From positions 139 to 64,138 of the forward strand of contig JABLTJ010000005.1 of NCBI GenBank assembly GCA_013166775.1: a DNA stretch of 64,000 nt, read 5' to 3'. This document shows, piece after piece, positions 40,726-55,095 of the stretch. How positions within the stretch are numbered: position 1 is the first letter of the stretch; every line of letters begins with the position of its first letter. Source of the stretch: Promethearchaeati archaeon (GTDB lineage: Archaea; Asgardarchaeota; Heimdallarchaeia; Heimdallarchaeales; Heimdallarchaeaceae). The translations under genes and the position numbers were made by a program. The notes under the pieces are model-generated. The model was not told where the DNA came from, made no database searches, and saw only the letters and a list, made by a program, of their open reading frames with translations.

Positions 40726-41793
40726 GTGAGTGATTTGGTAGATGGTGAAGAAAAAGAAACTACTCAGAAGAGCCTTACGTCTACAAATGATGAAATTACT
40801 CAAGATGAAAAATCACAAAACTTCTTCAATAGACTAAATTTGAGGTATTCAAATTTCAAACAAAGAACTTCAAATAAATTAGATCCTATAGCTGAAAAGT
40901 TTTCACCTCTTACTTCTTTTCTCAAAAAAAGATATTTACGATATGCAATATCGTCAATATTAGTAGCTTTTGTGATTTATTTTTATGTAATGTACGAAAT
41001 ATCTAGAGGAGCAGAGACGGTGAAGATACTGTTCCGTGATACTAATACTAACCATCTTGTACCCCTTGGATTAGTTTTAGCTTTCATAGCAGTTTTGTAT
41101 GTGACTTGGGATGATAACATATTCAAAAAGTACAGAAAACCTGGTTTATATGTGGTACTTCTAACAACTATCTTCTACGTTCTAATTTTTTCAGGTATTG
41201 ATACATATCTCTTTGAATTATCAATTGCAAAGTGGTTAACTAGGTTAACAGGATTAATTGTTCCCTATACCCTCCGTTTTTTTGGTTTAAATGTTACTAG
41301 TATAGAGTGGAACGAGGCTCGAATTAATACTTTTATAGGTTTAGGAGAGCCAAGTAAAACCCCTGGTCTCTTAATTGATCCAAGATGTAGTGGGATACAT
41401 TCTATGACAATTTTCATTTTCATTTTTCTGCTAATGCTATTTGAAGCAAGAAAAAAGATACATTGGAATCACAAAGCAGTTGGAGTAACCATAATTGGAA
41501 TCCTAGGGACCTATCTAATGAATTTCCTAAGAATCACAATAGTTATGCTCACCTTCTACTATGGAGGAACCAATTTAGGAGAATCAGTACATAATGTTCT
41601 AGGATATGTACTTCTAGTTATATGGCTTCCAATCTTCTGGTTGTTTATTCTACCTTTAGCTGAAAAAGGGAGAATATTCAGAAAGAAGAAAGCTAAGGAA
41701 ATGGAAGCAAGTAGAGACGATATTACAAAAATAGGCGAAAGTGAGGAAAAAGCCCAATCAGAAAATTCAGAGAAAGATCACCTATCCAATTAG
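40726..41793 (+). CDS. archaeosortase/exosortase-family transpeptidase
   Basis: 355 aa (GTG start) with about 8 TM helices. The conserved Cys lies in LIDPRCSGIHS (about 41386), the Arg in MNFLRITIV (about 41530) and a downstream His in ESVHNVLGY. The termini are hydrophilic. Confidence 0.65.
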   Translation: MSDLVDGEEKETTQKSLTSTNDEITQDEKSQNFFNRLNLRYSNFKQRTSNKLDPIAEKFSPLTSFLKKRYLRYAISSILVAFVIYFYVMYEISRGAETVKILFRDTNTNHLVPLGLVLAFIAVLYVTWDDNIFKKYRKPGLYVVLLTTIFYVLIFSGIDTYLFELSIAKWLTRLTGLIVPYTLRFFGLNVTSIEWNEARINTFIGLGEPSKTPGLLIDPRCSGIHSMTIFIFIFLLMLFEARKKIHWNHKAVGVTIIGILGTYLMNFLRITIVMLTFYYGGTNLGESVHNVLGYVLLVIWLPIFWLFILPLAEKGRIFRKKKAKEMEASRDDITKIGESEEKAQSENSEKDHLSN

Positions 41794-42936
41794 CACTTTT
41801 TCATATACTTTTTGGGTGAGATTTACTGTTTCTTTCCAAGAGTATTTTTCCGCAATTTTTAGTGATTTTTCTCTTATTGTATCTAAGGTTTGTTTATTCT
41901 GATTCAGTTCAATGATTTTATCAGCGATATCTTGAATCTCTCTTGGGGCAAGAATGATGGTATCATTATGATCAAAGGTTGCTGCTTGCGGAGTAGAGAT
42001 AATTGGTACTTGACACGCTAATGCTTCCAAAAGAGTTAAATTCATGCCCTCGTGGCTGGAAGGGAGTAGAAAAACATCTAGGGAACTTAAGAAAGCATTT
42101 TTTTTCTCAATATCATAGATATATCCAAAATCTACAATATTCTCCTCAAGACTATGATTTTTTATTATCTTTCGAATATCAGTTCTAGTGTTTAAATCAT
42201 CACCTGCTAGAAGCAGTTTTACATTAGGGATGCTTTTTTTAACTTTCCTAATTATTGGGAAAAGAAGTTTAGCCCCTTTTCCTGCTGTCATTCTCCCTAG
42301 AAATCCTAAAACAAATTCGTCTTCTTTTTTAGTGTAAAGTTTCTTGCTTGTTCTATGATGAGTTGTTAAATCCACTCCATTTGGAATAACAGTAATTTTT
42401 TCTTCAGAGATTGAGTAATTTGTCATTAATTCGTTTTTTATTGTTTCACTAACTGCTATTATGTGTCTTGCTCTTTTTAATAATCTCATCTCAATTTTTT
42501 TTAGCCAAGGATACAGCAACAATACTCTTTTTTCAACCCAACTTAAAGAATGAAAAGGTTCAGATTTAGCACCTCTTCTCTCTCTACTGAAAGTTGTATG
42601 AACCGTCTCAATAATGGGATAATCATCTTTTATTCCTAAAGATGAAAGAAGATTCATATTTCCATGAACAATTTCTGGTTTGATTTTGTTTACCACAGTC
42701 GAGGATTTTCTCCAAAAATTACGAGAGTAAAACAATTTAGATGAAGATGTTGCAACAAGTTTGAGCGATATATTTTTTCCAAACTTCGATTCAGTAGAAT
42801 CTTTTTTTTCTGCAGCAATAATATGAGGTTCCCATATCTGCTCTTTCTTTAATTCACTAGCTAAATGATAACAATAAACCCAAGTAGCACCTTTCAGATA
42901 TTCTTGTGTTAACAAACAAACATTTTTCCTTTTCAT
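41782..42936 (-). CDS. GT4-family glycosyltransferase
   Basis: 384 aa with the E-x7-E region EGMNLTLLEALACQVPIIST and a GT-B layout. Confidence 0.85.
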   Translation of the reverse strand: MKRKNVCLLTQEYLKGATWVYCYHLASELKKEQIWEPHIIAAEKKDSTESKFGKNISLKLVATSSSKLFYSRNFWRKSSTVVNKIKPEIVHGNMNLLSSLGIKDDYPIIETVHTTFSRERRGAKSEPFHSLSWVEKRVLLLYPWLKKIEMRLLKRARHIIAVSETIKNELMTNYSISEEKITVIPNGVDLTTHHRTSKKLYTKKEDEFVLGFLGRMTAGKGAKLLFPIIRKVKKSIPNVKLLLAGDDLNTRTDIRKIIKNHSLEENIVDFGYIYDIEKKNAFLSSLDVFLLPSSHEGMNLTLLEALACQVPIISTPQAATFDHNDTIILAPREIQDIADKIIELNQNKQTLDTIREKSLKIAEKYSWKETVNLTQKVYEKVLIG

Positions 42937-43832
42937 TTTTTTACATCACCAAATAATTGATCATATTCAATAACAGGAAAATCTGTTTGAGTTTGAATAA
43001 ATTCACTGTGAGTTAAAGTTTGCATATCTAGCTTGATTGCTAAATTAACAATTTCCTTTAGTAGATTATTGAGCTTTATTGGTTCATATATTGAATGAAC
43101 ATATAAGCAGATGTATTTTTTTCCTAAATCTACACATTCCTCAAATCGTTTTCTATACTCTTTTTTTATCTGATTTAGCGTTTTTCCTTGAAGGATGAAT
43201 TCTTCGATAGATGTCTCAGTTACAGGTAGTTGAGGAATTTGGAAAGATTTCTTTTGATTTCCTCTACCTTTGAATTGAAGATTAATGGGAATAGGATGAT
43301 ATAGATCGGAACTAAAACTAAAATTTTCTTCCTTTAGCAAGTGAAAATAATGTTTGTTTATCTGAAAATTCGGTGCAGCATTAGCTATGGGTCTCCGACT
43401 AAAGATTTTTGTGTACTCTTCTATTAGTGATTCTACATTTTCTTTTGTTTTCTCATAACTTAATCCACTAAAAGATTTGGACCATTTCACGTGATTGTAC
43501 CCATGAGGATGAAATTCAATTAATTTTTCAGTGTTATATTCCTGAAGTTTCCTTATTTCATTCTCTTTTATTCCTCTAGGTGGTAATAACAAACCTCGAA
43601 CAATGCTTTTAGGATGATTTCTTTTCCATAGAGGTATTCTTTTTTCCGTTATCTCTTTATTTTTAATTATGCGAAAAAGATTTCTTCCAGTGGCATACTT
43701 CCCCAAACTAAGATAAATTGTTACAGAACATTCTAGTTTTAAAGCAAAATCAACCACTTTAGGGATTCCTAATTTTAAACCTTCAAATGTATCAACATCG
43801 ACCCTAAGACAGAAGTTTGTTTCGGTGGTCAT
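42933..43832 (-). CDS. polysaccharide deacetylase (NodB/ArnD-like)
   Basis: 299 aa. The N-terminal CLRVDVDT and the later HPHGYNH resemble ArnD-type deformylase/deacetylase metal sites. It overlaps the downstream GT4 gene by 4 nt. Confidence 0.6.
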   Translation of the reverse strand: MTTETNFCLRVDVDTFEGLKLGIPKVVDFALKLECSVTIYLSLGKYATGRNLFRIIKNKEITEKRIPLWKRNHPKSIVRGLLLPPRGIKENEIRKLQEYNTEKLIEFHPHGYNHVKWSKSFSGLSYEKTKENVESLIEEYTKIFSRRPIANAAPNFQINKHYFHLLKEENFSFSSDLYHPIPINLQFKGRGNQKKSFQIPQLPVTETSIEEFILQGKTLNQIKKEYRKRFEECVDLGKKYICLYVHSIYEPIKLNNLLKEIVNLAIKLDMQTLTHSEFIQTQTDFPVIEYDQLFGDVKK

Positions 43833-43857
43833 TTATTTCGATTCTCTTTGTTTGGAT

Positions 43858-45078
43858 TTATTTCTTCTTTTCTAATGTCTTATAATATATCTGTTCAATT
43901 TCTTTAGCTTTCTTCTCCCAAGTATAGTTTTGTTTAATTTCCTCATAACCTAATGAGGCTAATTCCTCTGCTTTTTGCTCAGATTTCAATAGGTTCAGAA
44001 TTGCATCTGCTATACCCTCGTTTTCTTTTGCAGGCACTAAGACGCAATTTTTACCATTGTTAGTTATCTCTCTTATTCCAGGAATATCTGATGCAACTAC
44101 TGGTTTATTCATAGCCATCGCTTCAAGGACGCTAATGCTTGAAGCTTCTACGATGCTAGGAACAACGACAATATCAGCTACTGCTAAATATGCAGGTACT
44201 TCTTTGTTTGCTACCATACCTATAAAGTGAACATTCTTTACAATCCCCAATTCGTTTATTTCCTTGGTAATTCGTGCTTTCTCTGGTCCATCTCCAATAA
44301 TAATTAATTTTGCTTTTGGGAATTTTTCAACAACTTTCTTGAAAGCTTTCACCAAGTACAACACACCGTTTTTAACAACTAATCGTCTAGTTGTCATAAC
44401 TATAGGTCCTTCTTCCTCTTTCAAGAGTAAATTTGGCTTAATGTTTGGTGAGAATATATCTGTATCCACACCATTTAAAACAGTATTAATTTTTGCTTTT
44501 GCTTTTACATTACACCAATTTTTTACGGTTTCTGCAAAATCATAATCTGTGTGGATTTGGTAATGGCATCTTTTAGCGAGATATGGTGCCAATCTCTTTT
44601 CCATTTGTCTATAAAATAATACAGTTAGAGGATTTTTTACTAATTGTTTCCAATATTTGTAATATGATCCATGAATGGTGTTAATTACTTTGGACTGTCT
44701 TACTTTTCCTAAGGACAAAGCTGTTAATCCAGCAGAGTAGACGTGACCATGAATGATGTCATACTTCTCATTTTCTAGTATCTTGTTTTTTTGTGTTAAT
44801 TTTGTTTTTAAGAGAAAGAAGAGCTGTCTTGTAAAATTCAACTGTTGCGGATTATATGATCGTTTTATTAATGATAAGAAGTCAAGTCTTTTGTAATTAA
44901 CTCCTTCAATAGATATTTTTTCTCTACAATTTGGTATTGCTCCAGTGAAATACGTTACTTTATGTCCCAATTTGACTAGTTCTTTTGATATACTATATGC
45001 GTGAAGCTCTACTCCTCCACCAATGCTTCCGGAGTCATCAGGTCCTAGCTCAAACAACATTGCGATATTTAATGTCAT
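43858..45078 (-). CDS. GT4-family glycosyltransferase
   Basis: 406 aa. Motifs: GGVELHAYSISKEL and EASSISVLEAMAMNKPVVASD. Confidence 0.85.
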   Translation of the reverse strand: MTLNIAMLFELGPDDSGSIGGGVELHAYSISKELVKLGHKVTYFTGAIPNCREKISIEGVNYKRLDFLSLIKRSYNPQQLNFTRQLFFLLKTKLTQKNKILENEKYDIIHGHVYSAGLTALSLGKVRQSKVINTIHGSYYKYWKQLVKNPLTVLFYRQMEKRLAPYLAKRCHYQIHTDYDFAETVKNWCNVKAKAKINTVLNGVDTDIFSPNIKPNLLLKEEEGPIVMTTRRLVVKNGVLYLVKAFKKVVEKFPKAKLIIIGDGPEKARITKEINELGIVKNVHFIGMVANKEVPAYLAVADIVVVPSIVEASSISVLEAMAMNKPVVASDIPGIREITNNGKNCVLVPAKENEGIADAILNLLKSEQKAEELASLGYEEIKQNYTWEKKAKEIEQIYYKTLEKKK

Positions 45079-46082
45079 TTATTTCCCTTCTGTACCTTAG
45101 GTAAGAATATTTCTTGGATTATCCCTAAACTCCAACAAATATGCCCCTCAAAAAACATAATTGGTAGTAGATAAAGGAATTTCCATTTTTTGTAGCGTAT
45201 AGATTGAATTAGGGATGTAAGTAAAATTGTGAGTAGATAAAATCCAAAATATCCTGCTATACCCAATCCAACCCAGTAATTTGCTAATAAAGCTAAAATG
45301 AAGAAAATTCCTGTGATAAAATATAACGGAGGTAGCACGTGTCCAAAATCTAATCCTGCATTATGAGCTCTAAAAAACTGTATTTTACCTCTAGCATATT
45401 TCTTCGCTTTATTTCTATAAGCTTTATGCGTTTGAGGGCGCTGATGATACACTATTGCATTTGGTTCAAAATAGATTGAGTACCCCTTTTGAATCAGTTT
45501 ATAATTGATTTCTGTATCTTCAGCTGTGATTAGATTTTCATTGAAAGGCATTACTTCTTCAAGATAAACACGCTTATAGGCTGCATTGCAACCAGCGGCA
45601 CTTTGGACATACCTATTTTCTTTGTTAAATATACTCTTTATGTGCTCTGTCCAATTACCTCCAATAAATGTATTGTACACCGCACTTACTGCTTTCCCAA
45701 AATCCGTTTCATTTGGATACTCTATGTTAGGTCCAGTAGTGCACACAACTTCTCGTCCATGATCTTCATCAAAAGCTACTATCAAATTCTCGAGCCAATC
45801 TTCTTTTGCTATTGCGTCAGCATCAATGAAAACAATATAGTCCCCCTTAGCTTCTGGAACACCAACATTACAAGCTGCAGCTCTAGATCCTCCTTCTTCA
45901 TAGAGTATTTTACACTCAAATTTCTTTGCAATATCGATAGTTGAATCTTTAGAGTGACCATCGACAATAATTATCTCTTCTGGAGATTGTGTCTGTTTCA
46001 CCAATGATTCTAAACAATCTTCGATTGTTGAACTGCTATTATAAGTTGGAATAACTATAGAGACGGAATTCATACCAATCAT
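45075..46082 (-). CDS. GT2-family glycosyltransferase with C-terminal TM helices
   Basis: 335 aa. VSIVIPTYNSSSTIEDCLESL and IVFIDADA (DxD) are followed by hydrophobic C-terminal helices. Confidence 0.85.
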   Translation of the reverse strand: MIGMNSVSIVIPTYNSSSTIEDCLESLVKQTQSPEEIIIVDGHSKDSTIDIAKKFECKILYEEGGSRAAACNVGVPEAKGDYIVFIDADAIAKEDWLENLIVAFDEDHGREVVCTTGPNIEYPNETDFGKAVSAVYNTFIGGNWTEHIKSIFNKENRYVQSAAGCNAAYKRVYLEEVMPFNENLITAEDTEINYKLIQKGYSIYFEPNAIVYHQRPQTHKAYRNKAKKYARGKIQFFRAHNAGLDFGHVLPPLYFITGIFFILALLANYWVGLGIAGYFGFYLLTILLTSLIQSIRYKKWKFLYLLPIMFFEGHICWSLGIIQEIFLPKVQKGNK

Positions 46083-46087
46083 TCACA

Positions 46088-46597
46088 CTAATTTATTGTT
46101 ATAATCTCTTCCTTCATAAAATGTTTCTTCTTATATCCACCTGACTCATACATAGCAGTTTGATATTCAAAAACAATCTGGGGTTCTTTCTCTAAATAAT
46201 CCTCAATTATTTTTCTAGCTTCTTCCAATAACGTTTCCAAACTGACTTCTTGTGTTAATGGACAATACCAAACCAACCATTCGATTTTATAAGAACCAAC
46301 CTTGTTCTCTTTGATTTTTAGAAAAATAGGAAAGAGTTTGCAATCAAGTGGTCTATTCTCATAAATGCTGCAGAGATTTCTTTCTGTTAAGAAATAACAA
46401 TCTCTTGATTCTTTTTTCTTTTCCACAATATGAACTATCTTTTCCGATTCCTCTATTTTCCTTATCCAATTATCATCAGAAATCTGTTTATTTATTCTTG
46501 AAATATCCTCTGATGTTAAGGCTGGTGGAGTGCTTCTGCAACACTTACTCTCACATCTTTCAGCACAAATTAACAATCTCTGACTTTTTTTTGTCAT
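46088..46597 (-). CDS. YkgJ/UPF0153-like cysteine-cluster protein
   Basis: 169 aa. The N-terminal CAERCESKCC cluster plus later CYF, CSIY and CKLF resemble the putative Zn/Fe-chelating CxxCxxCC family. Confidence 0.5.
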   Translation of the reverse strand: MTKKSQRLLICAERCESKCCRSTPPALTSEDISRINKQISDDNWIRKIEESEKIVHIVEKKKESRDCYFLTERNLCSIYENRPLDCKLFPIFLKIKENKVGSYKIEWLVWYCPLTQEVSLETLLEEARKIIEDYLEKEPQIVFEYQTAMYESGGYKKKHFMKEEIITIN

Positions 46598-46651
46598 ATT
46601 GTTGGTTCATCTCTTTTCTTTTCAAGGAATACGAACTAGTTGAAATGTCAG

Positions 46652-47926
46652 CTAGAAAGCTTCTTCAACCATTTTCTCAAGATTATCTGCTGGTTTGATC
46701 AGCTTTAATTCTTCTTCTTTGTTTAATTCATACACAGCTGGTCTAGGGTATCCGAATTGTTCACTCATTGATAGTGTATATGCACCACAATTCAAAATTA
46801 TCAATATATCTTCTTCTTCCAATTTGAAATTCACAGCTTCATTCGAAATAACATCAACTGGTAAACAGAGAGGTCCTCCTAGATTACAATATTGGTCTTT
46901 ACCTTTGTCATTAACAGGGAGTGCTTTATAGTGTGAATATCTCATTGGAATAAGAGAATTTGCACCTATATCCGTGAAAGCCCATTTTCTTCCCCATGTT
47001 TTTTTTGTTCGTAGTATTTTAGTTAATGCCACAAAACTATCTTCAATTAAATACCGTCCGGGTTCAAAAATTATCAACTTATCTTTAACACCTTCAATAT
47101 TCATTGCAATTTGTTTACCCAGTTTCTCAAGACTAAATTCTTTATTATCTAGTGTGGATTTACTTGCCAAACCTCCACCAAGGTTAATCTGTTTTATTAC
47201 AATATTGTCTTTCTTCTCGAGATCAATAATATATTTGTTAAGAAAAGAAAGAAGTTCATCATAAAAATCATGGGAAGTTAAATTTGTTCCAACATGAACA
47301 TGGACACCAACAGGATCCAGATTTTGGTTATCTCTGGCAAATCTAAAAAACTTTAATCCTCTTGTGAAATCGACACCTAATTTACTATTTTTTCTTATTA
47401 ATAGTCGTTTTTCAGTTTCATCTTTAAATTGCGGATGAATTCTGATTGTTATCGGTTGAATTTTTTGCTCTGTTTCAGCTATTTTCGCAATTAGTTTGAG
47501 TTCATCCAATGAATCAACGTTGATATATCCCACTCCCTTAGATATAGCATATTGTAATTCCTCTGCTGTTTTAGCAGGACCGTTAAAGATTACTTTACCC
47601 CACGAATAACCAGCTCTTTCAGCTAGTTTCATTTCAAACAATGACATTACTTCAATACCTATATCTCTTGTTTTTGCAATTGAAAGTACCCTCCCAAGAT
47701 AATTTGCCTTAATTGCATATGACATAAAGATATTTGGGAGATTTTTTTGTAAAGCTTTTTCAAAGAAATCGATATTATTTAAGAATCTCGTGGGAAGAAA
47801 GATGAACATTGGTGTTGTTTTATCTTTTACAATGGCTTCTGCAAGTTGCTCTCTTATGTACAATTTCTTATTTCTATACGAAAGATAAGGATAGTTTTCA
47901 ATTAATTGATCCATTCTTTGTACCAC
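46652..47926 (-). CDS. PLP-dependent group IV decarboxylase (Orn/DAP/Arg decarboxylase family)
   Basis: 424 aa. Motifs: YAIKANY (PLP Lys), HVHVGT, NLGGGL, EPGRYL and CGAYT. The substrate cannot be assigned by eye. Confidence 0.8.
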   Translation of the reverse strand: MVQRMDQLIENYPYLSYRNKKLYIREQLAEAIVKDKTTPMFIFLPTRFLNNIDFFEKALQKNLPNIFMSYAIKANYLGRVLSIAKTRDIGIEVMSLFEMKLAERAGYSWGKVIFNGPAKTAEELQYAISKGVGYINVDSLDELKLIAKIAETEQKIQPITIRIHPQFKDETEKRLLIRKNSKLGVDFTRGLKFFRFARDNQNLDPVGVHVHVGTNLTSHDFYDELLSFLNKYIIDLEKKDNIVIKQINLGGGLASKSTLDNKEFSLEKLGKQIAMNIEGVKDKLIIFEPGRYLIEDSFVALTKILRTKKTWGRKWAFTDIGANSLIPMRYSHYKALPVNDKGKDQYCNLGGPLCLPVDVISNEAVNFKLEEEDILIILNCGAYTLSMSEQFGYPRPAVYELNKEEELKLIKPADNLEKMVEEAF

Positions 47927-48049
47927 TCTTCATTAACAACATAAATTCTCATTTAAATAATGTTATCGTTAAAATTCTGGTTAAAATAAGTAAATCTCTA
48001 GATGTCTTTATCCAGCAGATTTTTGAATAAGAATCCATGATAATCCATT
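47927..48049. promoter_or_regulatory. divergent promoter region between the decarboxylase-led and BpsA-led operons
   Basis: This is a 123-nt AT-rich spacer between divergent genes. It contains TATA-like TTTAAATA and TTAAAATAAG elements. No experimental support. Confidence 0.3.
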
Positions 48050-49228
48050 ATGGACAGAAAAAAAATCTTCAGTGAACTGTCCGACATTCAAAAAAATGTT
48101 GAGTTAAGAGAAGGCATTTTAGGATTAATACGATTATTAGGTTTAATTGAAAGGTTCCAAAGTGTTACAATGCGTAAAGTATCTCAAGAAAGCAATATAC
48201 CGGTGCCAATTTGTACTGCTGTAAGAAATGAGTTTATTAAACAAAATTGGTGTGAAAGAGATGCAAATGGAACAATAACTACCTCGTTGGGGAAAGAAGT
48301 TTTACAAATTTTAGGCGTTGTAGGTGAAAACATTACATGTTCAAAATGCTCTGGAGAAGGACTGATTTTTCCTAAAGAAAAATATCAAAAAGAACTTGAG
48401 CTGCTCACAAAGTATTGTGAAATGAGAGGAATACCTAATACATTAATTGACCAATCCTATGCTACGTCGGAAACTAGTCTCTCTCGAGTCCTTTTTATGA
48501 ACCATAATTTTGATTTAATTCATCAGAATTTCGCATTTCTAGGAGATAGTGATTTAACGAGTATTGCTTTAGGTATGTTTGCTCCATCTACTTGTAGGAT
48601 AGTAGTTTTTGACATCGACCAAAGATTGAAAGAGATTATTGATTTGGCAAACAAGCAACTTAACCTTTCCATTGAATTTGTAGAAATAGATCTTAAAAAG
48701 CCTTTACAGAATGAATTTATTAATCAATTCAATTGCATAATAACTGATCCACCTTATACTTTGAATGGAACCTCTTTGTTTGTTTCCAGGGGCATAGAGT
48801 TAATAACTTCAGATAATGAAGGGGTTATTTATCTTTCTTTCCCAACAAAAGCTCCAAATGAAATGGTGCAATTCCAGAAAAATCTATCAGAAATGAACTG
48901 TTTAATGACAGATATTATCCCGAAATTTAACAAATATATTGGTGCTCAGAAAATTGGTGGTGTTTCAACACTATTCAGATTATTAGTGGTTCCACCTGCA
49001 ATACCAAAAATAAAAGGTAGTTTTAACAAGCCGATTTATACTGGGGAAGCAAGTCCTACAATAAGATTCTATCAATGTTTAGACTGTCGAAAAACAATAA
49101 AAGTTGGACATAGAGAAAAATATCAGACTATTGAACAACTAAAAAAACAAAGCTGTCCAAATTGTAAGAGTGTAAAGTTTCGAAAAACAGATGAAAAAAA
49201 ACAGAATGATTTAAAATACAGACTTTGA
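48050..49228 (+). CDS. BpsA-like (DUF43) aminopropyltransferase-fold protein with N-terminal wHTH and C-terminal zinc ribbon
   Basis: 392 aa. IDQSYATSETSLSRV, FLGDSDLTSIAL, VVFDIDQRL, ITDPPYT and TDIIPKFNKY are colinear with branched-chain polyamine synthase BpsA/PF01861 (from memory). It carries an extra CLDC...CPNC tail. Confidence 0.65.
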   Translation: MDRKKIFSELSDIQKNVELREGILGLIRLLGLIERFQSVTMRKVSQESNIPVPICTAVRNEFIKQNWCERDANGTITTSLGKEVLQILGVVGENITCSKCSGEGLIFPKEKYQKELELLTKYCEMRGIPNTLIDQSYATSETSLSRVLFMNHNFDLIHQNFAFLGDSDLTSIALGMFAPSTCRIVVFDIDQRLKEIIDLANKQLNLSIEFVEIDLKKPLQNEFINQFNCIITDPPYTLNGTSLFVSRGIELITSDNEGVIYLSFPTKAPNEMVQFQKNLSEMNCLMTDIIPKFNKYIGAQKIGGVSTLFRLLVVPPAIPKIKGSFNKPIYTGEASPTIRFYQCLDCRKTIKVGHREKYQTIEQLKKQSCPNCKSVKFRKTDEKKQNDLKYRL

Positions 49229-49240
49229 TATTAAAGAATC

Positions 49241-49915
49241 ATGAAGATTTTTGATAACATAATTCTAATTCCAGGTGGTGGAAATTGTTATCTTATCGAA
49301 CGAGAGCAAGAGTGCGTGTTAATAGATACTGGAATGTCAAAGAAAGCATCAAAGTTAATAAAGACAATAAATAGAAATTTCCCATATAAACCTCTAGAAG
49401 CTATTATACTTACCCATTCTCATCAAGATCATATAGGAGGGACAGAAGAGCTTAGAAAATTATACAAACCATCAATCATAGCTCACGAAAAAGAAACTCC
49501 ATATATTGAGCAAACAAAAAAATTGCCTAGTTTTGAAGGTTTTGGTGGTTTTATGCTAAAAATACTAGAAGGAATGCTAGGTAGTCCTAGTTCTAAAGTG
49601 GATAAAAAAGTAGTGGACAATGATGTTGTATATGGTTTAAAAATCATGCATCTACCTGGCCATACTCCAGGAACTATTGCATTAGTTGATGTAGAGAACC
49701 AAATTTTATTCTGTGGTGATATCATTAATGCAGACAAGAAAGGGAAAAAAATATTACCACCAAAGAAAGCTTATGCTATTGATTATGAACAAGCATTAAA
49801 ATCATCAATAAAGATGTTGGAAGTAACATCACCGAGTGTTATTTTACCAGGTCATGGATCTCCAATTCTTGAACCAGAAAAGGCAATAAAAATGTATTTA
49901 GATGAATATAGATAG
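49241..49915 (+). CDS. metallo-beta-lactamase-fold hydrolase
   Basis: 224 aa. Motifs: THSHQDHIGG, HLPGHTPG and LPGHG. Confidence 0.8.
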   Translation: MKIFDNIILIPGGGNCYLIEREQECVLIDTGMSKKASKLIKTINRNFPYKPLEAIILTHSHQDHIGGTEELRKLYKPSIIAHEKETPYIEQTKKLPSFEGFGGFMLKILEGMLGSPSSKVDKKVVDNDVVYGLKIMHLPGHTPGTIALVDVENQILFCGDIINADKKGKKILPPKKAYAIDYEQALKSSIKMLEVTSPSVILPGHGSPILEPEKAIKMYLDEYR

Positions 49916-49923
49916 GTGTACTT

Positions 49924-51576
49924 GTGTTTCGTAAATCTGCATACTTCTCTGCACTAATATTGGGGAAAATAGCAATAATTTTTCTCATTCTTTACTTCAA
50001 TTTGGGAATGTTTGGATTTGATTCTTATATCCATCTTCAGTATGTAGATTCTATCTTAACAAATGGTCACATAACAGAACTTAGTATTGCACAATCTTAC
50101 TACGATTTTGTAGGTTTTCATGTTTTTGCATCTGCTATATCATCCTTAACCGGGTTAAGCGCAGAAATGCTTTATGAGTTCATAAGCACCATCCTACCTA
50201 TTCTAATATTCGATTTATCAATAGTTGCCTTTATTCATCATACTGGAAAGAAGAAAAAGGGTTATGATTCTCAAGATTTTAATCTTCAATATCTCGCTCT
50301 TGTGCTCCTATTCCCATCCATTATTGGAATTCAAATGTTCCTAGGTAGACCTAATTCACTAGGAATCAGTTTATTCTGTTTGTGTTTGTACCTTTATCTT
50401 TGCAAACCTGAAAGTTTCAGAGCACAACTTATTGCAGGTTTCCTTGCTATAGTCACTGTTAAAGTTCATCATTTATCTGCTGTTTTCTTACTACCTGTTA
50501 TCCTCTTTGTAAGCATATTCCTTGCTGAAGATTACAAGTCAATTTTATCACTCGTTTATGCCCTACCTGCTGTTATTATAGTCAATACTATACTCAATTC
50601 TAGAGAATTTAATATTGTGAATTATTACTTTACGAGAAACGAGTTCTATGAGGTGCTCTACAATGTTTTTATAAAGAACATGTTCTCATTACTTGTGCTC
50701 TGGGTAATCATAACTTTGATAGGTTTTCTGATAAGAAAACGGTACGGAAAAAGAGTATCGGAATTTTTCACTAAGCAAAAATTTTCAAAAATATCTCTTA
50801 TAATAATAGCTGGAGGGATGGTTATTGTACAAATCATAGGATTATTTTTTTACACTTCCAATCTTCCCTCTTGGTATGTTTCTACAGAGCTTGTAATTCT
50901 TTTTCTTTTAAGTGGGGTAGCCTTAATTAAACCTAATAGAGTGAAATATGCACTTTTTATTCTAGGTTTTTGTTTTTATGGCTTAACTGTAATTTTTTCT
51001 CTTGTGTTTAGTGCTACAGAACATGAGCTTTCTTGGGTAGCACCTAGAACATTTGTTTTTACAATCATTTTTGTTGGAATTCTTAGTTTTCTATCTATTT
51101 CTGGATTCTTAAAATCTCTGAAGAAAAAGTGGGCAACTCTTCTTGTAGTTGTTCTACTCTTTAATTCTTATCTCAGCCTTGCTTACATAGGAGATCAATA
51201 TCTTCCAGGTTATAACCTAACCAATGAGTACTATGACTTAACTTTTGCTTATAATATTGAAACAAATGTTGATTTTGCTAGCTCAACAATCAGTATGCCA
51301 TTTTCTATTTCAAAATTTATTACAGGAATTAATATTTACACTATACCTCAGTTGTTGGATTCTAATTCTTCAATGAAAACGAATGCACTTCGCATGAAAT
51401 CATTCTTTTTCATAAGATATATAGTGATTGGTGAAGTAATGGATCAATGGCTTGGAACACCAATAAAACTTACGCCAGAAGAACTCATGTTTTACGTTTG
51501 CTTGAATTATAATAATATACCTTTATTCCATTTGATAACAAGTAATGGGAAAAATTTCTTACTTTATAGGACTTAG
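49924..51576 (+). CDS. polytopic membrane protein, possible GT-C-fold glycosyltransferase
   Basis: 550 aa (GTG start, with AGGTG 5 nt upstream), at least 12 TM helices and a soluble tail of about 130 aa. The first loop, FGFDSYIHLQY, resembles the acidic first-loop motif of STT3/AglB-like GT-C enzymes. There is no WWDYG motif. Confidence 0.4.
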   Translation: MFRKSAYFSALILGKIAIIFLILYFNLGMFGFDSYIHLQYVDSILTNGHITELSIAQSYYDFVGFHVFASAISSLTGLSAEMLYEFISTILPILIFDLSIVAFIHHTGKKKKGYDSQDFNLQYLALVLLFPSIIGIQMFLGRPNSLGISLFCLCLYLYLCKPESFRAQLIAGFLAIVTVKVHHLSAVFLLPVILFVSIFLAEDYKSILSLVYALPAVIIVNTILNSREFNIVNYYFTRNEFYEVLYNVFIKNMFSLLVLWVIITLIGFLIRKRYGKRVSEFFTKQKFSKISLIIIAGGMVIVQIIGLFFYTSNLPSWYVSTELVILFLLSGVALIKPNRVKYALFILGFCFYGLTVIFSLVFSATEHELSWVAPRTFVFTIIFVGILSFLSISGFLKSLKKKWATLLVVVLLFNSYLSLAYIGDQYLPGYNLTNEYYDLTFAYNIETNVDFASSTISMPFSISKFITGINIYTIPQLLDSNSSMKTNALRMKSFFFIRYIVIGEVMDQWLGTPIKLTPEELMFYVCLNYNNIPLFHLITSNGKNFLLYRT

Positions 51577-52728
51577 GTGAAATTTGTGGATTCGTTGAGA
51601 ATAGTACAAGTAACTCCTTTCTTTGGTTCCAAAAGCTATGGTGGTACTGAAAGATATGTGAGTCATTTATCAAAGGAACTGGCAAGAAGAGGACATTATA
51701 TAGATGTTTTTACAACCAAGAAATCAACAAAGATTCCATATCAAACATATTATGAGAATATGACTGTCCATCGTTTTTATAGTCCATGGAATGTTTTTGG
51801 TATTAATCCAGCTTGTATAATGCTTCATAAATTACTAAAATTAAAAGAAGTAGATGTTTTTCATGTGCATTCTTTCATTTACTTCACAACAATACAAGCG
51901 GCAATTGCAAAGCTGTTCAAACAAAAACCACTTCTTCTGCACATTCATGGCGGTGTAGGATCTCCTCCATACAAAACTGGATTTGTTAAGGAATTTGCAA
52001 AGAAATTCTACGATTATACTTTGGGAAGATTCGTTTTATCACAAGCTGATGTGATTGCTTCGGTTAGTAGTTATGATAAAGATCTTCTAGAACATAGCCT
52101 ACACAGGAATCCAAAAAGACTAACTATTATAAACAATGCAATAAATCCAGAAATATTTCCAGAAATTGTTCCTAGAATAGAGAAAGAATACAACATTGCA
52201 TACATTGGAGATCTTGAACCTTGGAAAGGTGTATCATATTATATACTAGCAATTCAAAAACTTCTAAAAGAAACAAAAAATCTCTCGTTTTGGTTTATTG
52301 GGTATGGTTCACTCTTTCCTTTACTGCAAAAGAAATTTGGTAAAGAGAAAAGAGTGAAATTATTCGGTGCAGTTGATCATTCCAAAATTCCTTCTCTTCT
52401 AGAAAAAGTACATGCGTTAATTCTCCCTAGTTTCTGGGAAGGTTCTCCCACAACAATTATAGAAGCAATGGCAATGGGGATTCCTGTAATTGCTTCAAAT
52501 ATAGGAGATATTCCTAGACTTCTTAGGAGAGGAAAAGATGGAGTGCTTTTCGAAGCGGGAAATGTTCAATCCTTAGAAGATGCTATTCTGAATGTAGTTG
52601 ATAATTATTCTTCATACGTGAAAAAAGCCCAAACAGCTAGGAAGAGAATAAGAAGAGAGTATTCTTTTAATCATGTTACAGATCAGATTGAGAAATTATA
52701 TTATCAGATGGCAGGAAAAACAACATAG
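51577..52728 (+). CDS. GT4-family glycosyltransferase
   Basis: 383 aa. Motifs: RIVQVTPFF, GGTERYVSHLSKEL and EGSPTTIIEAMAMGIPVIASN. The start abuts the stop of the previous gene; alternative starts are at 51586 and 51595. Confidence 0.85.
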   Translation: MKFVDSLRIVQVTPFFGSKSYGGTERYVSHLSKELARRGHYIDVFTTKKSTKIPYQTYYENMTVHRFYSPWNVFGINPACIMLHKLLKLKEVDVFHVHSFIYFTTIQAAIAKLFKQKPLLLHIHGGVGSPPYKTGFVKEFAKKFYDYTLGRFVLSQADVIASVSSYDKDLLEHSLHRNPKRLTIINNAINPEIFPEIVPRIEKEYNIAYIGDLEPWKGVSYYILAIQKLLKETKNLSFWFIGYGSLFPLLQKKFGKEKRVKLFGAVDHSKIPSLLEKVHALILPSFWEGSPTTIIEAMAMGIPVIASNIGDIPRLLRRGKDGVLFEAGNVQSLEDAILNVVDNYSSYVKKAQTARKRIRREYSFNHVTDQIEKLYYQMAGKTT

Positions 52729-52926: not shown

Positions 52927-53045
52927 AATTGTTAACTTTATAATAACGAGTGTAGAATCTATCCGAAACACACAAAAAGCAATCAGTTTTCTACAATCTG
53001 GGAAGTGTAACCAATCAAAGAACAATACATTAAGGGTGATTGATA

Positions 53046-54761
53046 ATGTCTGAAGAAAAGTGGGTGATCACAGCTGCTTGGCCTTATGTAAATAATATTC
53101 CTCATCTGGGAACATTTTCACAGTTATTGTGGGGTGATGTAATCACACGTTACCATAAACTTCGAAAACATGATACTCTTTATGTAAGTGGATCTGATGC
53201 TCATGGCACACCTATAGTGGTTGCAGCAGAAGAGGAAGGAGTCTCACCTATCGAATTAGCAATGAGATATCACAATCGAACATTGGAGCTGTTAGACGAA
53301 TGGAATATTGAATTTGATAAGTATACAATAACTCATAATCCATTACACATATCTTTTGTTCAAGAATTTCATAAAAAAATTCATCAGAATGGTTATTTTA
53401 AACTCAAGGAAACTGAACAACACTATTGTGAACACGATCAAAGATTTCTACCAGATCGTTTCGTTGAAGGTATTTGTCCAGTTTGTAATATTAAAGGAGC
53501 AAGAGGAGACCAGTGTAATAATCCAGAATGTGAGGTGATTCTCAAACCTACTGATTTAATTGAGCCGCATTGTATAACTTGTCATAAAACTCCAGTACTT
53601 AAGAAAACTAGTCATTGGTATTTTGATCTTCCTGCGTTTTCAGACGCATTAAAAAAATTCGCAGAAGAGAATCCTCATATTCCCTCATTTGCTAAGCAAA
53701 AACTACTAAGTATGATCGAAGAAGGATTAATAGAACGTCCGATTTCCAGAGATATGACTTGGGGGATTCCAATTGATCCAATATTTGGAGAGGAATATAT
53801 AAACAAAGTATTGTATGTATGGTTTGAGAATGTGCTTGGTTATATTAGCACAGTGAAATTTATTGCAGAAGAACAAGGAAAACCCGAACTTTTTGATGAA
53901 TTCTGGTTGGATAAAAACACAAAAACTGTATTCTGTATTGGAAAAGACAACATAATATTTCATGCTTTAATCTTTCCTGCCATGCTTTTAGCTACAAGGG
54001 ATTCTTATCCTTTGCCTTATGCTGTTGCAACTACAAACTTTATTCAATTTAAAGAGGGGCCATTCTCTAAATCGAAAGGTATTGGAATTTGGTGTGATGA
54101 AGCTACAGCTACACTGCCTGCTGATTACTGGAGATATTATTTAAGCAATAATAGGGCTGAGCTAAAGGACACTTATTTTGATTGGGATGATTTTGCTTCC
54201 AATGTCAATGTTGATCTTAATGATGTAACTGGTAATTTTATTCATAGAACAATAACATTTATTGGACAACATTTTCAGAGCAAAATTCCTGAAAGAGGGA
54301 ATTTAACTGAAGAGGAAAATGGCATTCTTGCTCAGGTAAAGAAGAATATAGATCTTTATCTCAACGCTATGGATAATTTCAAACTTAAGGATGCAACAAA
54401 AATTGCTATAAATGTGGCGAGATTAGGTAACCAATATTTCTCATCAGTAGAACCCTGGCATCTAATAAAGAAAGACAAGAAAAAGACTGCTACCGTTCTT
54501 AATCTATCTGCTAAAATTTCTGAAGTTATTTCAGTGCTTTTATGGCCCATCATTCCTGAAACAGCAGAGAAAATCTGGGGATCTCTTGGTTTTCAAGGTA
54601 AACCAGTTGATAAGGGAATAGACGCAATTGATATGAATGAGACACATGCTGGACAAGAGATTAAAAAAATCAAACCAGTTTTTCATAAAGTAAAAGCAGA
54701 CGAAATTCAAAAGAAATGGAATGAAGTGAGGAAAAAGGTTAAGGGAAAAGAAAAAAAGTGA
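53046..54761 (+). CDS. metG: methionyl-tRNA synthetase (core enzyme, lacking the C-terminal tRNA-binding domain)
   Basis: Motifs: PYVNNIPHLGT (HIGH-like), zinc knuckles CPVC...CNNPEC and CITC, and PFSKSKG (KMSKS). The track starts at TTG 53040; ATG 53046, preceded by GGGTGAT, is the likely start. Confidence 0.95.
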   Translation: MSEEKWVITAAWPYVNNIPHLGTFSQLLWGDVITRYHKLRKHDTLYVSGSDAHGTPIVVAAEEEGVSPIELAMRYHNRTLELLDEWNIEFDKYTITHNPLHISFVQEFHKKIHQNGYFKLKETEQHYCEHDQRFLPDRFVEGICPVCNIKGARGDQCNNPECEVILKPTDLIEPHCITCHKTPVLKKTSHWYFDLPAFSDALKKFAEENPHIPSFAKQKLLSMIEEGLIERPISRDMTWGIPIDPIFGEEYINKVLYVWFENVLGYISTVKFIAEEQGKPELFDEFWLDKNTKTVFCIGKDNIIFHALIFPAMLLATRDSYPLPYAVATTNFIQFKEGPFSKSKGIGIWCDEATATLPADYWRYYLSNNRAELKDTYFDWDDFASNVNVDLNDVTGNFIHRTITFIGQHFQSKIPERGNLTEEENGILAQVKKNIDLYLNAMDNFKLKDATKIAINVARLGNQYFSSVEPWHLIKKDKKKTATVLNLSAKISEVISVLLWPIIPETAEKIWGSLGFQGKPVDKGIDAIDMNETHAGQEIKKIKPVFHKVKADEIQKKWNEVRKKVKGKEKK

Positions 54762-54768
54762 TGATAAA

Positions 54769-55095
54769 ATGGAAAGAATAAATTATGAGGATTTCAAGAA
54801 AGTTAATCTTAAAATCGCAACAATAAGAAGCGCAATTAATATTGACAAAAGTAAAAATTTGATTAAATTACAAATTGATTTAGGTACAGAAGAAAGGCAA
54901 ATACTAGCAGGGATTAAGCAATATTACAAACCTGAGGATTTGGTTGGAAAGCAAATTGTTGTTGTCACAAATCTTAAACCTGCTACTCTAATGGGTGAAA
55001 AATCTGATGGTATGTTATTAGCAGCAGATATTGATGGAGAACCAATTTTACTGAATTTAGATAAACCTGTACCACCAGGAACAGAAGTAAAATAA
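54769..55095 (+). CDS. stand-alone tRNA-binding domain protein (Trbp111/CsaA/MetRS C-domain-like)
   Basis: 108 aa. FKKVNLKIATIRSA...KLQIDLGTEERQILAGI...GKQIVVVTNLKPATLMGEKSDGMLLAA is the OB-fold tRNA-binding domain that is normally fused to long MetRS. Confidence 0.85.
   Translation: MERINYEDFKKVNLKIATIRSAINIDKSKNLIKLQIDLGTEERQILAGIKQYYKPEDLVGKQIVVVTNLKPATLMGEKSDGMLLAADIDGEPILLNLDKPVPPGTEVK

Follow-up and report, generated by a model that had tools for sequence, protein, structure and literature searches.

DUF43 (PF01861) enzymes are represented among described systems by BpsA, the N4-bis(aminopropyl)spermidine synthase of T. kodakarensis (EC 2.5.1.128, TK1691, structure 5xnc), in which Asp159 and Asp160 form salt bridges with the aminopropyl amine of dcSAM (PMC12979288). 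A second relevant system is found in microcin C synthesis of E. coli, where the SAM-dependent, methyltransferase-fold enzyme MccD is proposed to transfer a 3-amino-3-carboxypropyl (acp) group that the PLP domain of MccE then decarboxylates (PMC10491745, PMC8503589); the decarboxylase may instead act first, in the reverse order, and make dcSAM (PMC10491745). Arginine or ornithine can be the substrate decarboxylated by SpeD homologues (PMC10407285), and in diaminopimelate decarboxylase (DAPDC) the distal-amine residue is a Glu, E315 in TmDAPDC (PMC8277567). Here we describe a locus in a 64,000-nucleotide stretch of DNA (the window) from a member of the Heimdallarchaeaceae, in which a DUF43/BpsA-like gene lies beside the gene of a group IV PLP decarboxylase. 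The conserved unit is the trio formed by these two genes and that of a CxxCxxCC protein, and not the 11-kb gene cluster in which they are embedded.

Gene layout of the locus

The ten ORFs of the cluster (41782-52728) were all found where the initial annotation had placed them. Its coordinates, the 123-nt spacer and every gap and overlap were identical when re-measured: the minus arm has gaps of 54, 5 and 25 nt plus two 4-nt overlaps, and the plus arm gaps of 12, 8 and 0 nt. The domain assignments likewise held, by Pfam and NCBIfam profile matches and, for the 550-aa protein, by ESM Atlas neighbours, and in the present genome the two amine genes do stand first in two compact glycan operons. The same gene-for-gene arrangement recurs in relatives whose DUF43 protein is just ~50% identical, which is more than chance would give, and the trio and the glycan module are probably co-transcribed. 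The AT-rich spacer between the divergent decarboxylase and DUF43 genes (47927-48049, 123 nt, sequence read directly) has a putative promoter function and contains TTTAAATA (47952-47959), which precedes the start codon of the decarboxylase gene by 26-33 nt.

The core trio comprises the DUF43/BpsA-like transferase P0001 (392 aa, 48050..49228, plus strand; PF01861, 150 bits), the group IV, alanine-racemase-fold PLP decarboxylase (46652..47926, minus strand; PF02784 and PF00278) and a YkgJ-type CxxCxxCC protein, putatively Zn- or Fe-binding (169 aa, 46088..46597, minus strand; PF03692, 44.5 bits). In P0001 an N-terminal domain precedes a catalytic domain that carries GDSD (165-168) and DPPYT (233-237), and a basic tail follows a C-terminal CxxC...CxxC zinc ribbon, which was already noted in the initial annotation and is seen in the translation. 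An MBL-fold hydrolase (224 aa, 49241..49915, plus strand; PF00753, 109 bits) follows. By gene-order comparison this is a frequent yet dispensable DUF43 companion, present in genera g1-g4 and missing from g5 and from loci L005 and L026.

The glycan module occupies the rest of both arms. On the plus strand are a GT-C-like polytopic membrane protein (550 aa, 49924..51576), which has at least 11 hydrophobic segments and ESM Atlas neighbours in the GT-C families PMT_2, DUF6541, AftA and STT3 (TM 0.6-0.76), and a GT4 (51577..52728; PF00534, PF13439). On the minus strand are a GT2 with two C-terminal hydrophobic segments by hydropathy (45075..46082; PF00535, 108 bits), a GT4 (43858..45078; PF00534, 133 bits), a 299-aa ArnD-like (NodB-superfamily-like) deformylase/deacetylase homologue (42933..43832) and a further GT4 (41782..42936; PF13692, PF13439, PF00534). 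The ArnD-like protein matches NF011923 at 56 bits (E = 3.5e-15), far under the equivalog cutoff of 382, and a Pfam profile search gave zero matches for it. Directly left of the cluster, convergent with the minus arm and overlooked in the initial annotation, is a gene for a membrane protein of the exosortase/archaeosortase family (40726..41793, plus strand; TIGR04178, 49.5 bits, cutoff 23), that varies together with the glycosyltransferase genes; its product reaches just 36 bits against the ArtC model (cutoff 100).

Conservation of the trio and of the glycan genes

Among genomes of the window's family, orthologues of the DUF43 protein were found in 30/30, and those of the decarboxylase and of the CxxCxxCC protein in 29/30 each, always adjacent: in these 29 the decarboxylase gene is always divergent to the DUF43 gene, and the CxxCxxCC gene always adjoins that of the decarboxylase. 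Because the genomes are related, these family counts are not independent; in all, about two to four events are. Glycosyltransferases adjoin the trio in three genera, g1-g3. In g4 and g5 every glycan-module gene tested is missing from the locus and the trio is still there, CxxCxxCC protein included; it sits between RHH and MetRS in g4 and, in the single-contig genomes of g5, among CysRS, enoyl-CoA hydratase, amino-acid kinase and gyrase. The GT-C-like gene was found in g1 and g2 only and the ArnD-like gene in g1-g3 only, and the archaeosortase-like gene, present in 24/24, 2/2 and 1/1 genomes of g1, g2 and g3 and in 0/1 and 0/2 of g4 and g5, tracks the glycan module and not the trio. None of these three genes has a match anywhere in the g4 or g5 genomes.

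Pairs of DUF43 and decarboxylase genes recur outside the family on three unrelated contigs. In L024 (72% GC) genes for DUF43 (GDGD), decarboxylase and GNAT have overlapping ends, in L113 DUF43 (GDSD) overlaps the start of the group IV decarboxylase gene, and in L023 the two genes are 3.5 kb apart. Neither a glycosyltransferase near the pair nor a CxxCxxCC protein was found at any of the three. Since the trio outlasts the glycan genes in g4 and g5, and the pairs elsewhere are without a glycosyltransferase, it is the amine module that forms the functional unit; its association with glycan genes is optional, and the sugar-transferase genes around the trio were added later. The initial annotation had taken amine and glycan genes together as one cluster. 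The adjacency it described is real and conserved in g1-g3, but g4, g5, L023, L024 and L113 speak against a single integrated unit. Its remark that group IV decarboxylases are not normal in glycan loci was too strong, as NCBIfam TIGR03099 is an exosortase-A-associated decarboxylase family, of which the window's decarboxylase is not a member.

That annotation's reading was of integrated glycan decoration, in which the trio would act on the product of the neighbouring glycosyltransferases, for example on an amino sugar linked to a lipid, the ArnD-like enzyme having freed its amine. This would yield a cationic surface glycan or glycolipid bearing aminopropyl or amine groups, and the GT-C-like and archaeosortase-like proteins would help to export or attach it. 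The two operon-like arms headed by amine genes (gaps of 0-54 nt, two overlaps) and their gene-for-gene retention in g1-g3 favour this, as does the combination of ArnD-like protein, membrane-anchored GT2 and GT-C-like protein, which recalls the Arn pathway, in which a cationic sugar is put on lipid A. The housekeeping flanks are likewise syntenic in g1-g3, however, so that the conservation there may be inherited gene order; the trio is family-wide whereas the module is confined to g1-g3, and the pairs elsewhere also argue against it. We consider integrated decoration unlikely; as it concerns the acceptor, it is compatible with chemistry that uses SAM directly.

Decarboxylase, DUF43 motif and source of the aminopropyl group

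The partner of DUF43 differs between families. SpeD (PF02675) was found in 0/31 genomes of the window's family, and in 20/22, 2/2 and 10/12 genomes of the sister families f5, f6 and f7, where it is either fused to the DUF43 homologue (f5, ~462-aa frames) or otherwise 56-138 nt away from it. The DUF43-linked SpeD domains could themselves be arginine or ornithine decarboxylases instead of AdoMet decarboxylases, to judge from their homologues. The window's genome encodes deoxyhypusine synthase, a pyruvoyl arginine decarboxylase and two arginase-family genes; neither SpeD nor a convincing SpeE was found in it, and a strong SpeE occurs in just 1/83 genomes of the class. Families f2-f4 also have deoxyhypusine synthase and are without every candidate aminopropylation gene, so a need for spermidine alone does not assign the trio's role. 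A saccharopine-dehydrogenase-family gene scores 40 bits against the carboxynorspermidine synthase model (cutoff 800) and is distributed differently from the decarboxylase.

The change of partner goes with a change of motif. P0001 aligns with Tk-BpsA (5xnc) at 113 bits over residues 44-302, with LGDSDLTS against LGDDDLTS, and in this alignment keeps the equivalents of Asp160, Asp225 (in DPP) and Tyr290; the residue changed in GDSD is the equivalent of Asp159. In a survey of 96 full-length DUF43 loci from archaea and bacteria, 83 had GDDD (flanking group IV decarboxylase in 0/83, SpeD in 29/83), and the remaining 13 had GD[S/G]D, with the decarboxylase in 13/13 and SpeD in 0/13. L113 is a later, additional GD[S/G]D case and is also decarboxylase-linked. 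Close orthologues comprised 43 with GDSD and one with GDGD, and all 26 of the distant matches had GDDD. Decarboxylase-linked DUF43 proteins fell into two clades in trees (support 1.0 and 0.985), with GDDD lineages between them. A separate bacterial DUF43 subgroup (~250 aa, catalytic domain only) has GDSD or GDND and neither decarboxylase nor SpeD within 5 kb, so the motif alone does not imply a decarboxylase partner; it could be a sign of plain methyl transfer.

The decarboxylase, the sole group IV decarboxylase encoded in the genome, belongs to a DUF43-associated subfamily (signature GGPLCLPVD / LIPMRY / MSEQFGYPRP); its catalytic Lys, GGG, EPGR and Cys...Asp are retained. The TIGR01048 LysA model is its top-scoring named model (231 bits, under the cutoff of 298), DAPDC structures are its best PDB matches (A. 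aeolicus 2p3e, 159 bits), and relatives of the two proteins are annotated publicly as 'diaminopimelate decarboxylase family' and 'bis-aminopropyl spermidine synthase family'. These matches would suit chance housekeeping neighbours, LysA beside a stand-alone BpsA-type branched-polyamine synthase. The LysA identity was rejected: besides the score under cutoff, neither DapA nor DapF was found in the genome (88.7% complete), and the DAP-specific positions are altered, the distal-amine Glu being Leu, as in genuine NspC (Phe in MccE-NTD), with the Arg displaced and the Tyr replaced by Phe. The missing SpeD, the changed GDDD, the lack of an acidic C-terminal carrier cluster and the recurrence of the pairing in unrelated contexts also count against chance neighbours, which we regard as very improbable. 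In taking the two genes as something other than ordinary housekeeping LysA and BpsA genes, the initial annotation was correct.

The altered GDDD motif, together with the absence of SpeD from all 31 genomes, makes a dcSAM-dependent, BpsA-type reaction unlikely in this family. The reading that we tentatively prefer, by analogy with MccD and MccE, is a two-step aminopropylation by the trio that uses SAM without SpeD. Conservation, change of partner, change of motif and the rejection of LysA are established here, whereas the donor (SAM, not dcSAM), the order of steps, the acceptor and the part of the CxxCxxCC protein are inferred. In the first step the DUF43 enzyme would transfer acp from SAM to a nucleophile, for which amines, for instance agmatine, putrescine or a longer polyamine, are the likeliest candidates, and the PLP decarboxylase would then strip the carboxylate to leave an aminopropyl group. 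The trio would in this way stand in for the SpeD-DUF43 pair of the sister families and is probably how the family makes spermidine-type polyamines, with a glycan acceptor possible and not required. In the window's genome and across g1-g3 a separate module (archaeosortase-like protein, GT2, three GT4s, ArnD-like and GT-C-like proteins) has been built on both sides of it. The Asp-to-Ser/Gly change could also reflect a different acceptor instead of a different donor.

Alternatively, the decarboxylase could be a new PLP-dependent SAM decarboxylase that replaces pyruvoyl SpeD, with DUF43 a conventional dcSAM-dependent aminopropyltransferase. It would replace SpeD like for like next to a transferase of one and the same family. 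SAM is itself an acp compound, so a pocket whose distal-amine acid is exchanged for Leu would accommodate it as well, and an equivalent route may apply to MccE/MccD (PMC10491745). This leaves unexplained, however, why Ser or Gly takes the place of Asp159 in all decarboxylase-linked DUF43 proteins and in no SpeD-linked one, and no PLP-dependent SAM decarboxylase is named in the literature consulted, the activities given for AR-fold decarboxylases in PMC8503589 included; we think it rather unlikely.

The decarboxylase might instead supply an acceptor amine from an amino acid, which DUF43 would N-methylate or otherwise alkylate with SAM, aminopropylation having been lost in the family. DPPY, present in P0001, is typical of amino-group methyltransferases, and P0001 has a weak PF10237 match; the catalytic-only proteins with GDSD and without any decarboxylase are also consistent with this, as are arginine or ornithine decarboxylase functions of the SpeD homologues beside DUF43 (PMC10407285). 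DPPY is, however, common to SpeD-fused GDDD members and therefore does not mark methyl transfer, the decarboxylase is without the distal-amine acid of ODC/ADC (Asp) or DAPDC (Glu) (PMC8277567), and the pyruvoyl arginine decarboxylase and arginase-family genes already provide for agmatine or putrescine. An acceptor-supplying role is accordingly a distinctly improbable one.

Comparison with described systems

The preferred two-step reading draws on the microcin C genes, insofar as in both cases the gene of a SAM-dependent, methyltransferase-fold enzyme adjoins that of a group IV PLP decarboxylase. The window's decarboxylase and MccE-NTD are homologues (E = 8e-29; 27% identity across 371 aa) in which the catalytic Cys is followed by a hydrophobic residue, and the order MccD, decarboxylase, GNAT is the order of transferase, decarboxylase and GNAT in L024. 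The transferase here is of the DUF43/BpsA family, however, with no detectable sequence similarity to MccD, the decarboxylase is not fused to GNAT, and the MccA, MccB, MccC and MccF peptide-nucleotide machinery is missing; mcc is a plasmid antibiotic operon, whereas the trio is chromosomal and has been conserved by vertical descent in an archaeal family.

NspC/CASDC, which acts with carboxy(nor)spermidine dehydrogenase, also belongs to the group IV PLP enzymes and has a carboxyaminopropyl-amine as its substrate; its catalytic Cys, too, is followed by Leu (C-L-S-G-D in genuine NspC, C-L-P-V-D here). With the NspC model (cutoff 409) the window's decarboxylase reaches just 38.5 bits, with 25% BLAST identity over 205 aa, and the acp group would come from SAM in our model and comes from aspartate semialdehyde in the NspC pathway. 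LysA is the best overall sequence match, with all PLP-binding and catalytic residues kept, and differs at the three distal-site positions given above.

BpsA is of the same PF01861 family and fold as P0001 but has GDDD where P0001 has GDSD, an acidic aminopropyl-carrier C-terminus in place of the zinc ribbon and basic tail (PMC12979288), and SpeD in place of the PLP decarboxylase as its partner; it comes from a thermophile culture, whereas the window DNA was assembled from marine sediment metagenomes. The SpeD-DUF43 fusions and operons of sister Heimdallarchaeia (f5-f7), Patescibacteria, Firmicutes and alphaproteobacteria match P0001 in their full-length DUF43 architecture (N-terminal domain, DPPY, C-terminal zinc ribbon) and in coupling a transferase to a decarboxylase, and differ in that they pair pyruvoyl SpeD with GDDD, whereas the present locus pairs a group IV PLP enzyme with GD[S/G]D.

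Layout of the cluster and its separable modules

We mapped open reading frames across the cluster (41782-52728) and searched the products with Pfam and NCBIfam, which reproduced exactly the coordinates, gaps and overlaps of the initial annotation and confirmed each of its domain calls. The minus-strand arm encodes a group IV PLP decarboxylase (46652-47926), a CxxCxxCC protein (46088-46597), a GT2 and a GT4 glycosyltransferase, an ArnD-like protein and a second GT4. The plus-strand arm encodes a PF01861 (BpsA_C, DUF43) protein of 392 aa (P0001, 48050-49228), an MBL-fold hydrolase (49241-49915), a 550-aa polytopic protein (49924-51576) and a further GT4. The polytopic, GT-C-like protein has at least 11 hydrophobic segments and no Pfam model at or above cutoff; its feature and structure neighbours in the ESM Atlas are PMT_2, DUF6541, AftA and STT3 clusters, at TM 0.6-0.76 for an Atlas model whose mean pLDDT is only 0.59.

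The immediate left neighbour of the cluster (40726-41793) belongs to the exosortase/archaeosortase family (TIGR04178, 49.5 bits against a cutoff of 23), and its product reached no named archaeosortase subtype (ArtC, 36 bits against 100). Sugar-modification genes lie farther left, and the right border of the island is the MetRS gene. At 53040-55095 MetRS is encoded in two pieces, a core of 573 aa and an ORF of 108 aa for the tRNA-binding domain; in two relatives (L005:14356-16407 and L007:9651-11702) it is a single fused 683-aa protein that includes PF01588. Between the two arms, the decarboxylase gene (minus strand, GTG start) is preceded at 26-33 nt by a TTTAAATA box, read by eye at 47952-47959, a spacing that would fit a candidate archaeal TATA box for a leaderless transcript. 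The source names given for homologues place the genome in Heimdallarchaeia. The stretch derives from marine sediment metagenomes; the only sequencing runs found to contain it are three DNA runs of one such study, probably its source.

Each of the 30 other genomes of the window's family (f1) has an orthologue of the DUF43 protein, at 46-84% identity, and no further genome among the 83 of the class has one. Decarboxylase orthologues (56-90% identity) were found in 29 of these 30, always adjoining the DUF43 gene in divergent orientation, and CxxCxxCC orthologues, likewise in 29/30, neighbour the decarboxylase every time. The full cluster is syntenic in genera g1-g3, which by itself proves little because the housekeeping flanks are syntenic as well. 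In genus g4 the order is RHH, CxxCxxCC-decarboxylase, divergent DUF43-MBL, then MetRS, and in the two single-contig genomes of genus g5 the DUF43, decarboxylase and CxxCxxCC genes sit amid CysRS, enoyl-CoA hydratase, amino-acid kinase and gyrase genes. Nearly every g1-g3 genome has the GT-C-like, archaeosortase-like and ArnD-like genes; genome-wide searches in g4 and g5 gave no match to any of the three. The locus thus consists of two modules, a universal trio of DUF43, decarboxylase and CxxCxxCC genes, often with the MBL gene, and a glycan block that is present or absent as a unit; the glycan genes are a separable, lineage-specific module. The initial annotation had proposed a pathway that decorates a surface glycan with amine or aminopropyl groups. 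Such a pathway concerns the acceptor and is compatible with the SAM-direct chemistry considered below; it cannot be obligatory, since the trio is kept in g4 and g5 without the glycan genes.

Some of these loci have further peculiarities. The gyrase A gene beside the g5 trio (L011:18283-19998, genome G006) contains an intein with a LAGLIDADG homing-endonuclease domain. In four g1 relatives the ArnD-like match (G013:C43, G017:C65, G021:C22 and G028:C38) lies inside a 686-689-aa open frame with one in-frame TAG, and the GT-C-like protein of the same genomes gives two matches inside one 593-aa frame; these frames could reflect read-through or fusion with a neighbouring gene, or an insertion.

Identity of the decarboxylase

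The decarboxylase is the sole group IV decarboxylase of its own genome. The initial annotation had allowed that it might prove to be LysA, and this identity was rejected on three grounds. It scores 231.5 bits against the LysA model TIGR01048, below the cutoff of 297.9. DapF (TIGR00652) and DapA (TIGR00674) were not found in the genome, which is 88.7% complete, and are likely absent from it. Third, the residues of the distal substrate site are changed. Aligned with LysA-like sequences, the protein keeps the PLP lysine, the GGG and EPGR motifs and the Cys...Asp pair, but it has C-L-P-V-D where LysA has C-E-x-G-D, so that the Glu for the distal amine of diaminopimelate (DAP) is Leu. In TmDAPDC this residue, E315, binds the distal amine of DAP, and its replacement by Leu or Pro (E315L, E315P) costs the enzyme about 95% of its activity (PMC8277567). 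In addition, LI-PMRY replaces the LysA dl.rP.lY, displacing the equivalent of Arg285, and MSEQFG replaces ss.YN, turning the tyrosine of S-x-Y-N into Phe. All three altered motifs are conserved among 61 members of the family as well as in two groups at greater distance, and the signature GGPLCLPVD / LIP[ML]R[YF] / MSEQFG is common to farther relatives at 35-44% identity.

At the position of the lost Glu a genuine NspC (499 bits) has C-L-S-G-D and the decarboxylase domain of the microcin C enzyme MccE has C-F-E-C-D. A hydrophobic residue is therefore found there in both types of enzyme for which decarboxylation of a carboxyaminopropyl group is known or proposed. The window's decarboxylase is not itself NspC (TIGR01047, 38.5 bits against a cutoff of 409). 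A CASDH/CANSDH partner elsewhere in the genome was also rejected, as the only saccharopine-dehydrogenase-family gene scores 40 bits against the NF043000 cutoff of 800; that family occurs in 78 of the 83 class genomes, with or without the decarboxylase. We weighed an exosortase-A-associated decarboxylase (TIGR03099) owing to the archaeosortase-like neighbour and a match to that model, and rejected it at 145 bits against a cutoff of 478, the decarboxylase being kept in g4 and g5 without the archaeosortase-like gene.

The DUF43 protein and its change of partner

P0001 matches PF01861 at 150 bits (cutoff 27), with the match ending at position 193 of the 243 in the profile, and is homologous to the catalytic domain of Tk-BpsA (PDB 5xnc; 113 bits, E = 1.2e-31), the alignment being unambiguous at the GDDD/GDSD motif. 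Where BpsA has GDDD, P0001 has GDSD (residues 165-168), with Ser at the equivalent of Asp159; the orthologues have GDSD in 43 of 44 cases and GDGD in the other. In BpsA, Asp159 and Asp160 salt-bridge the aminopropyl amine of decarboxylated SAM (dcSAM) and are essential (PMC12979288). One of two acidic residues facing the amino end of the donor is thus lost, a change that would be expected if the donor keeps its carboxylate. The proteins also differ at the C-terminus, where Tk-BpsA has an acidic cluster (E339, D342-E345) carrying the aminopropyl group and P0001 has a CxxC...CxxC ribbon followed by a Lys/Arg-rich tail, and in having DPPET and DPPYT, respectively. We rejected DPPY and the zinc ribbon as distinguishing features because both are common to GDDD members linked to SpeD, the pyruvoyl SAM decarboxylase. 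With GDDD altered, the acidic carrier cluster absent and no SpeD found, P0001 is not taken to be a BpsA, and a BpsA-type reaction with dcSAM is unlikely for it.

A short second DUF43 paralogue is present in every genome of the family and in several genomes of families f2-f4; in the window's own genome it lies at C93:16283-16816 (L002:1450-2304). It is about 287 aa long and about 29% identical, with GDMD and EPPMT motifs, and its neighbours have no Pfam or NCBIfam match. Upstream of the paralogue in genome G037, at a distance of about 1 kb, is a CxxCxxCC-like gene (G037:C198:648-2711), an arrangement that hints at a wider link between CxxCxxCC and DUF43 proteins.

SpeD (PF02675) had no match in the window's own genome (88.7% complete) or in any of the 31 genomes of the family, two of which are single-contig; the eukaryotic-type profile PF01536 was also searched and matched no control genome. 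SpeD was found in other families of the class, in 20/22 genomes of f5, 2/2 of f6 and 10/12 of f7, fused to a DUF43 homologue in f5 and directly beside one in f6 and f7. The own genome has no convincing SpeE, and a strong SpeE occurs in 1 of the 83 class genomes. Taken together, the linkage to SpeD and the rarity of SpeE make the DUF43 family appear to be the aminopropyltransferase of this class. A caveat for the argument from a change of partner is that a SpeD homologue may decarboxylate arginine or ornithine instead (PMC10407285); the DUF43-linked SpeD domains are putative AdoMet decarboxylases.

Motifs, called by alignment, and neighbouring genes were compared for 96 loci with a full-length DUF43 gene; these come from Heimdallarchaeia, Methanocaldococcus, Firmicutes, Xenorhabdus and alphaproteobacteria. 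None of the 83 GDDD loci has a group IV decarboxylase in its flanks and 29 have SpeD; the 13 GD[S/G]D loci all have the decarboxylase and lack SpeD. Three independent cases lie outside the family. In L024 (72% GC) a GDGD DUF43 gene, a decarboxylase gene and a GNAT gene have overlapping ends, in L113 a GDSD DUF43 gene overlaps the start of a group IV decarboxylase gene, and in L023 the two genes are 3.5 kb apart. In trees, the decarboxylase-linked DUF43 proteins form two clades (support 1.0 and 0.985) with GDDD lineages between them. A chance adjacency of LysA and BpsA is contradicted by the data. The motif-partner rule has a limit, in that a subgroup of bacterial DUF43 proteins comprising just the catalytic domain (about 250 aa) has GDSD or GDND without a decarboxylase nearby. 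Our metagenome scan used a pattern preselecting GD[GNS]D and thus gives no estimate of motif frequency. On two metagenome contigs from that subgroup (L131:4935-5693 and L141:4980-5720) the roughly 250-aa GDSD gene lies among NusB, RNase III, YceG and PilO genes, and this branch of PF01861 may consist of plain SAM-dependent methyltransferases.

Bacterial GDDD-type DUF43 genes are often beside a GNAT acetyltransferase gene; among 80 loci, many of those from Paenibacillus and Clostridia show a spacing of 20-75 nt. In Ruminiclostridium cellulolyticum (L009:8001-13414, CP001348.1) the neighbours also include genes for a carrier protein, an epimerase-family protein, SpeD and an MBL-fold protein. Their gene content suggests an uncharacterised pathway for aminopropyl compounds that are acylated or acetylated.

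A possible SAM-direct route and the microcin C precedent

The closest precedent is microcin C synthesis, in which MccD, a SAM-dependent enzyme of methyltransferase fold, is proposed to transfer the 3-amino-3-carboxypropyl (acp) group of SAM, and decarboxylation by the PLP domain of MccE would then yield aminopropyl, although the two steps may run the other way round (PMC10491745, PMC8503589). We located the mcc operon on a plasmid from E. coli. The N-terminal domain of MccE and the window's decarboxylase are homologous (27% identity over 371 aa, E = 8e-29), and, as in mcc, the decarboxylase gene adjoins a gene for a SAM-dependent protein of methyltransferase fold, in 29/30 family genomes and in L024, L113 and, at its greater distance, L023. 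MccD and P0001 give no significant BLASTP alignment (best E = 0.99), so that they resemble each other only in logic and in general fold class.

By analogy, the GDSD-type DUF43 protein would move the acp group from SAM onto an amine, and the decarboxylase would then complete the aminopropyl group. The replacement at Asp159 and the NspC/MccE-like hydrophobic residue give this scheme indirect support. The same gene pair could instead comprise a PLP-dependent SAM decarboxylase feeding a conventional aminopropyltransferase; that less likely reading keeps dcSAM as donor and would leave the replaced Asp159 equivalent unexplained. A further, likewise less likely reading is that the decarboxylase supplies an acceptor for methylation.

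For acp transfer followed by decarboxylation, the acceptor is plausibly agmatine or putrescine and the product spermidine, given that the own genome encodes deoxyhypusine synthase (DHS), a pyruvoyl arginine decarboxylase and two arginase-family proteins. The argument that DHS requires the trio to make spermidine is weakened, because DHS is also present in families lacking every candidate gene. A group IV PLP decarboxylase distinct from the window's (24-28% identity) adjoins DHS in f5 (for example at G049:C12:333133-335345, G064:C19:18239-20418 and G060:C86:13104-15077); genomes with this pair also have the DUF43-SpeD fusion, and most are without a strong SpeE. Polyamine and hypusine wiring in the class seems to run through DUF43.

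Our tentative overall reading, which we regard as possible rather than probable, is that a whole family of Heimdallarchaeia has exchanged SAM decarboxylase for a third, SAM-direct route, in which a BpsA-family enzyme retuned from Asp to Ser works with a dedicated PLP decarboxylase on agmatine, putrescine or a polyamine. This route would have arisen at least twice in unrelated lineages and in g1-g3 would be wired into an archaeosortase-linked glycan operon, perhaps for a cationic, aminopropylated envelope glycan. If so, it would account for DHS in organisms without SpeD or a convincing SpeE, and GD[S/G]D together with a C-L-P-V-D decarboxylase would offer a simple criterion by which hundreds of genes could be re-annotated that at present are called 'diaminopimelate decarboxylase' or 'bis-aminopropyl spermidine synthase'. 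Heimdallarchaeia belong to the Asgard archaea and have been named as a candidate origin of the eukaryotic host lineage; for the ancestor of eukaryotes, the presumed route is AdoMetDC with spermidine synthase (PMC12803844).

The pairing of DUF43 with a decarboxylase was not described in the literature that we searched on DUF43/PF01861, Heimdallarchaeota polyamines and acp-based polyamine routes. The novel element would be the joining of BpsA-family transferase chemistry to decarboxylation of the MccE/NspC type. Two known aminopropylation routes lead to spermidine-type polyamines, one using dcSAM and an aminopropyltransferase and the other using aspartate semialdehyde with CASDH and CASDC. Direct acp transfer from SAM followed by PLP-dependent decarboxylation has, to our knowledge, so far been proposed for one antibiotic only, microcin C; if the trio acts in this way on cellular amines, it would constitute a third general aminopropylation route.
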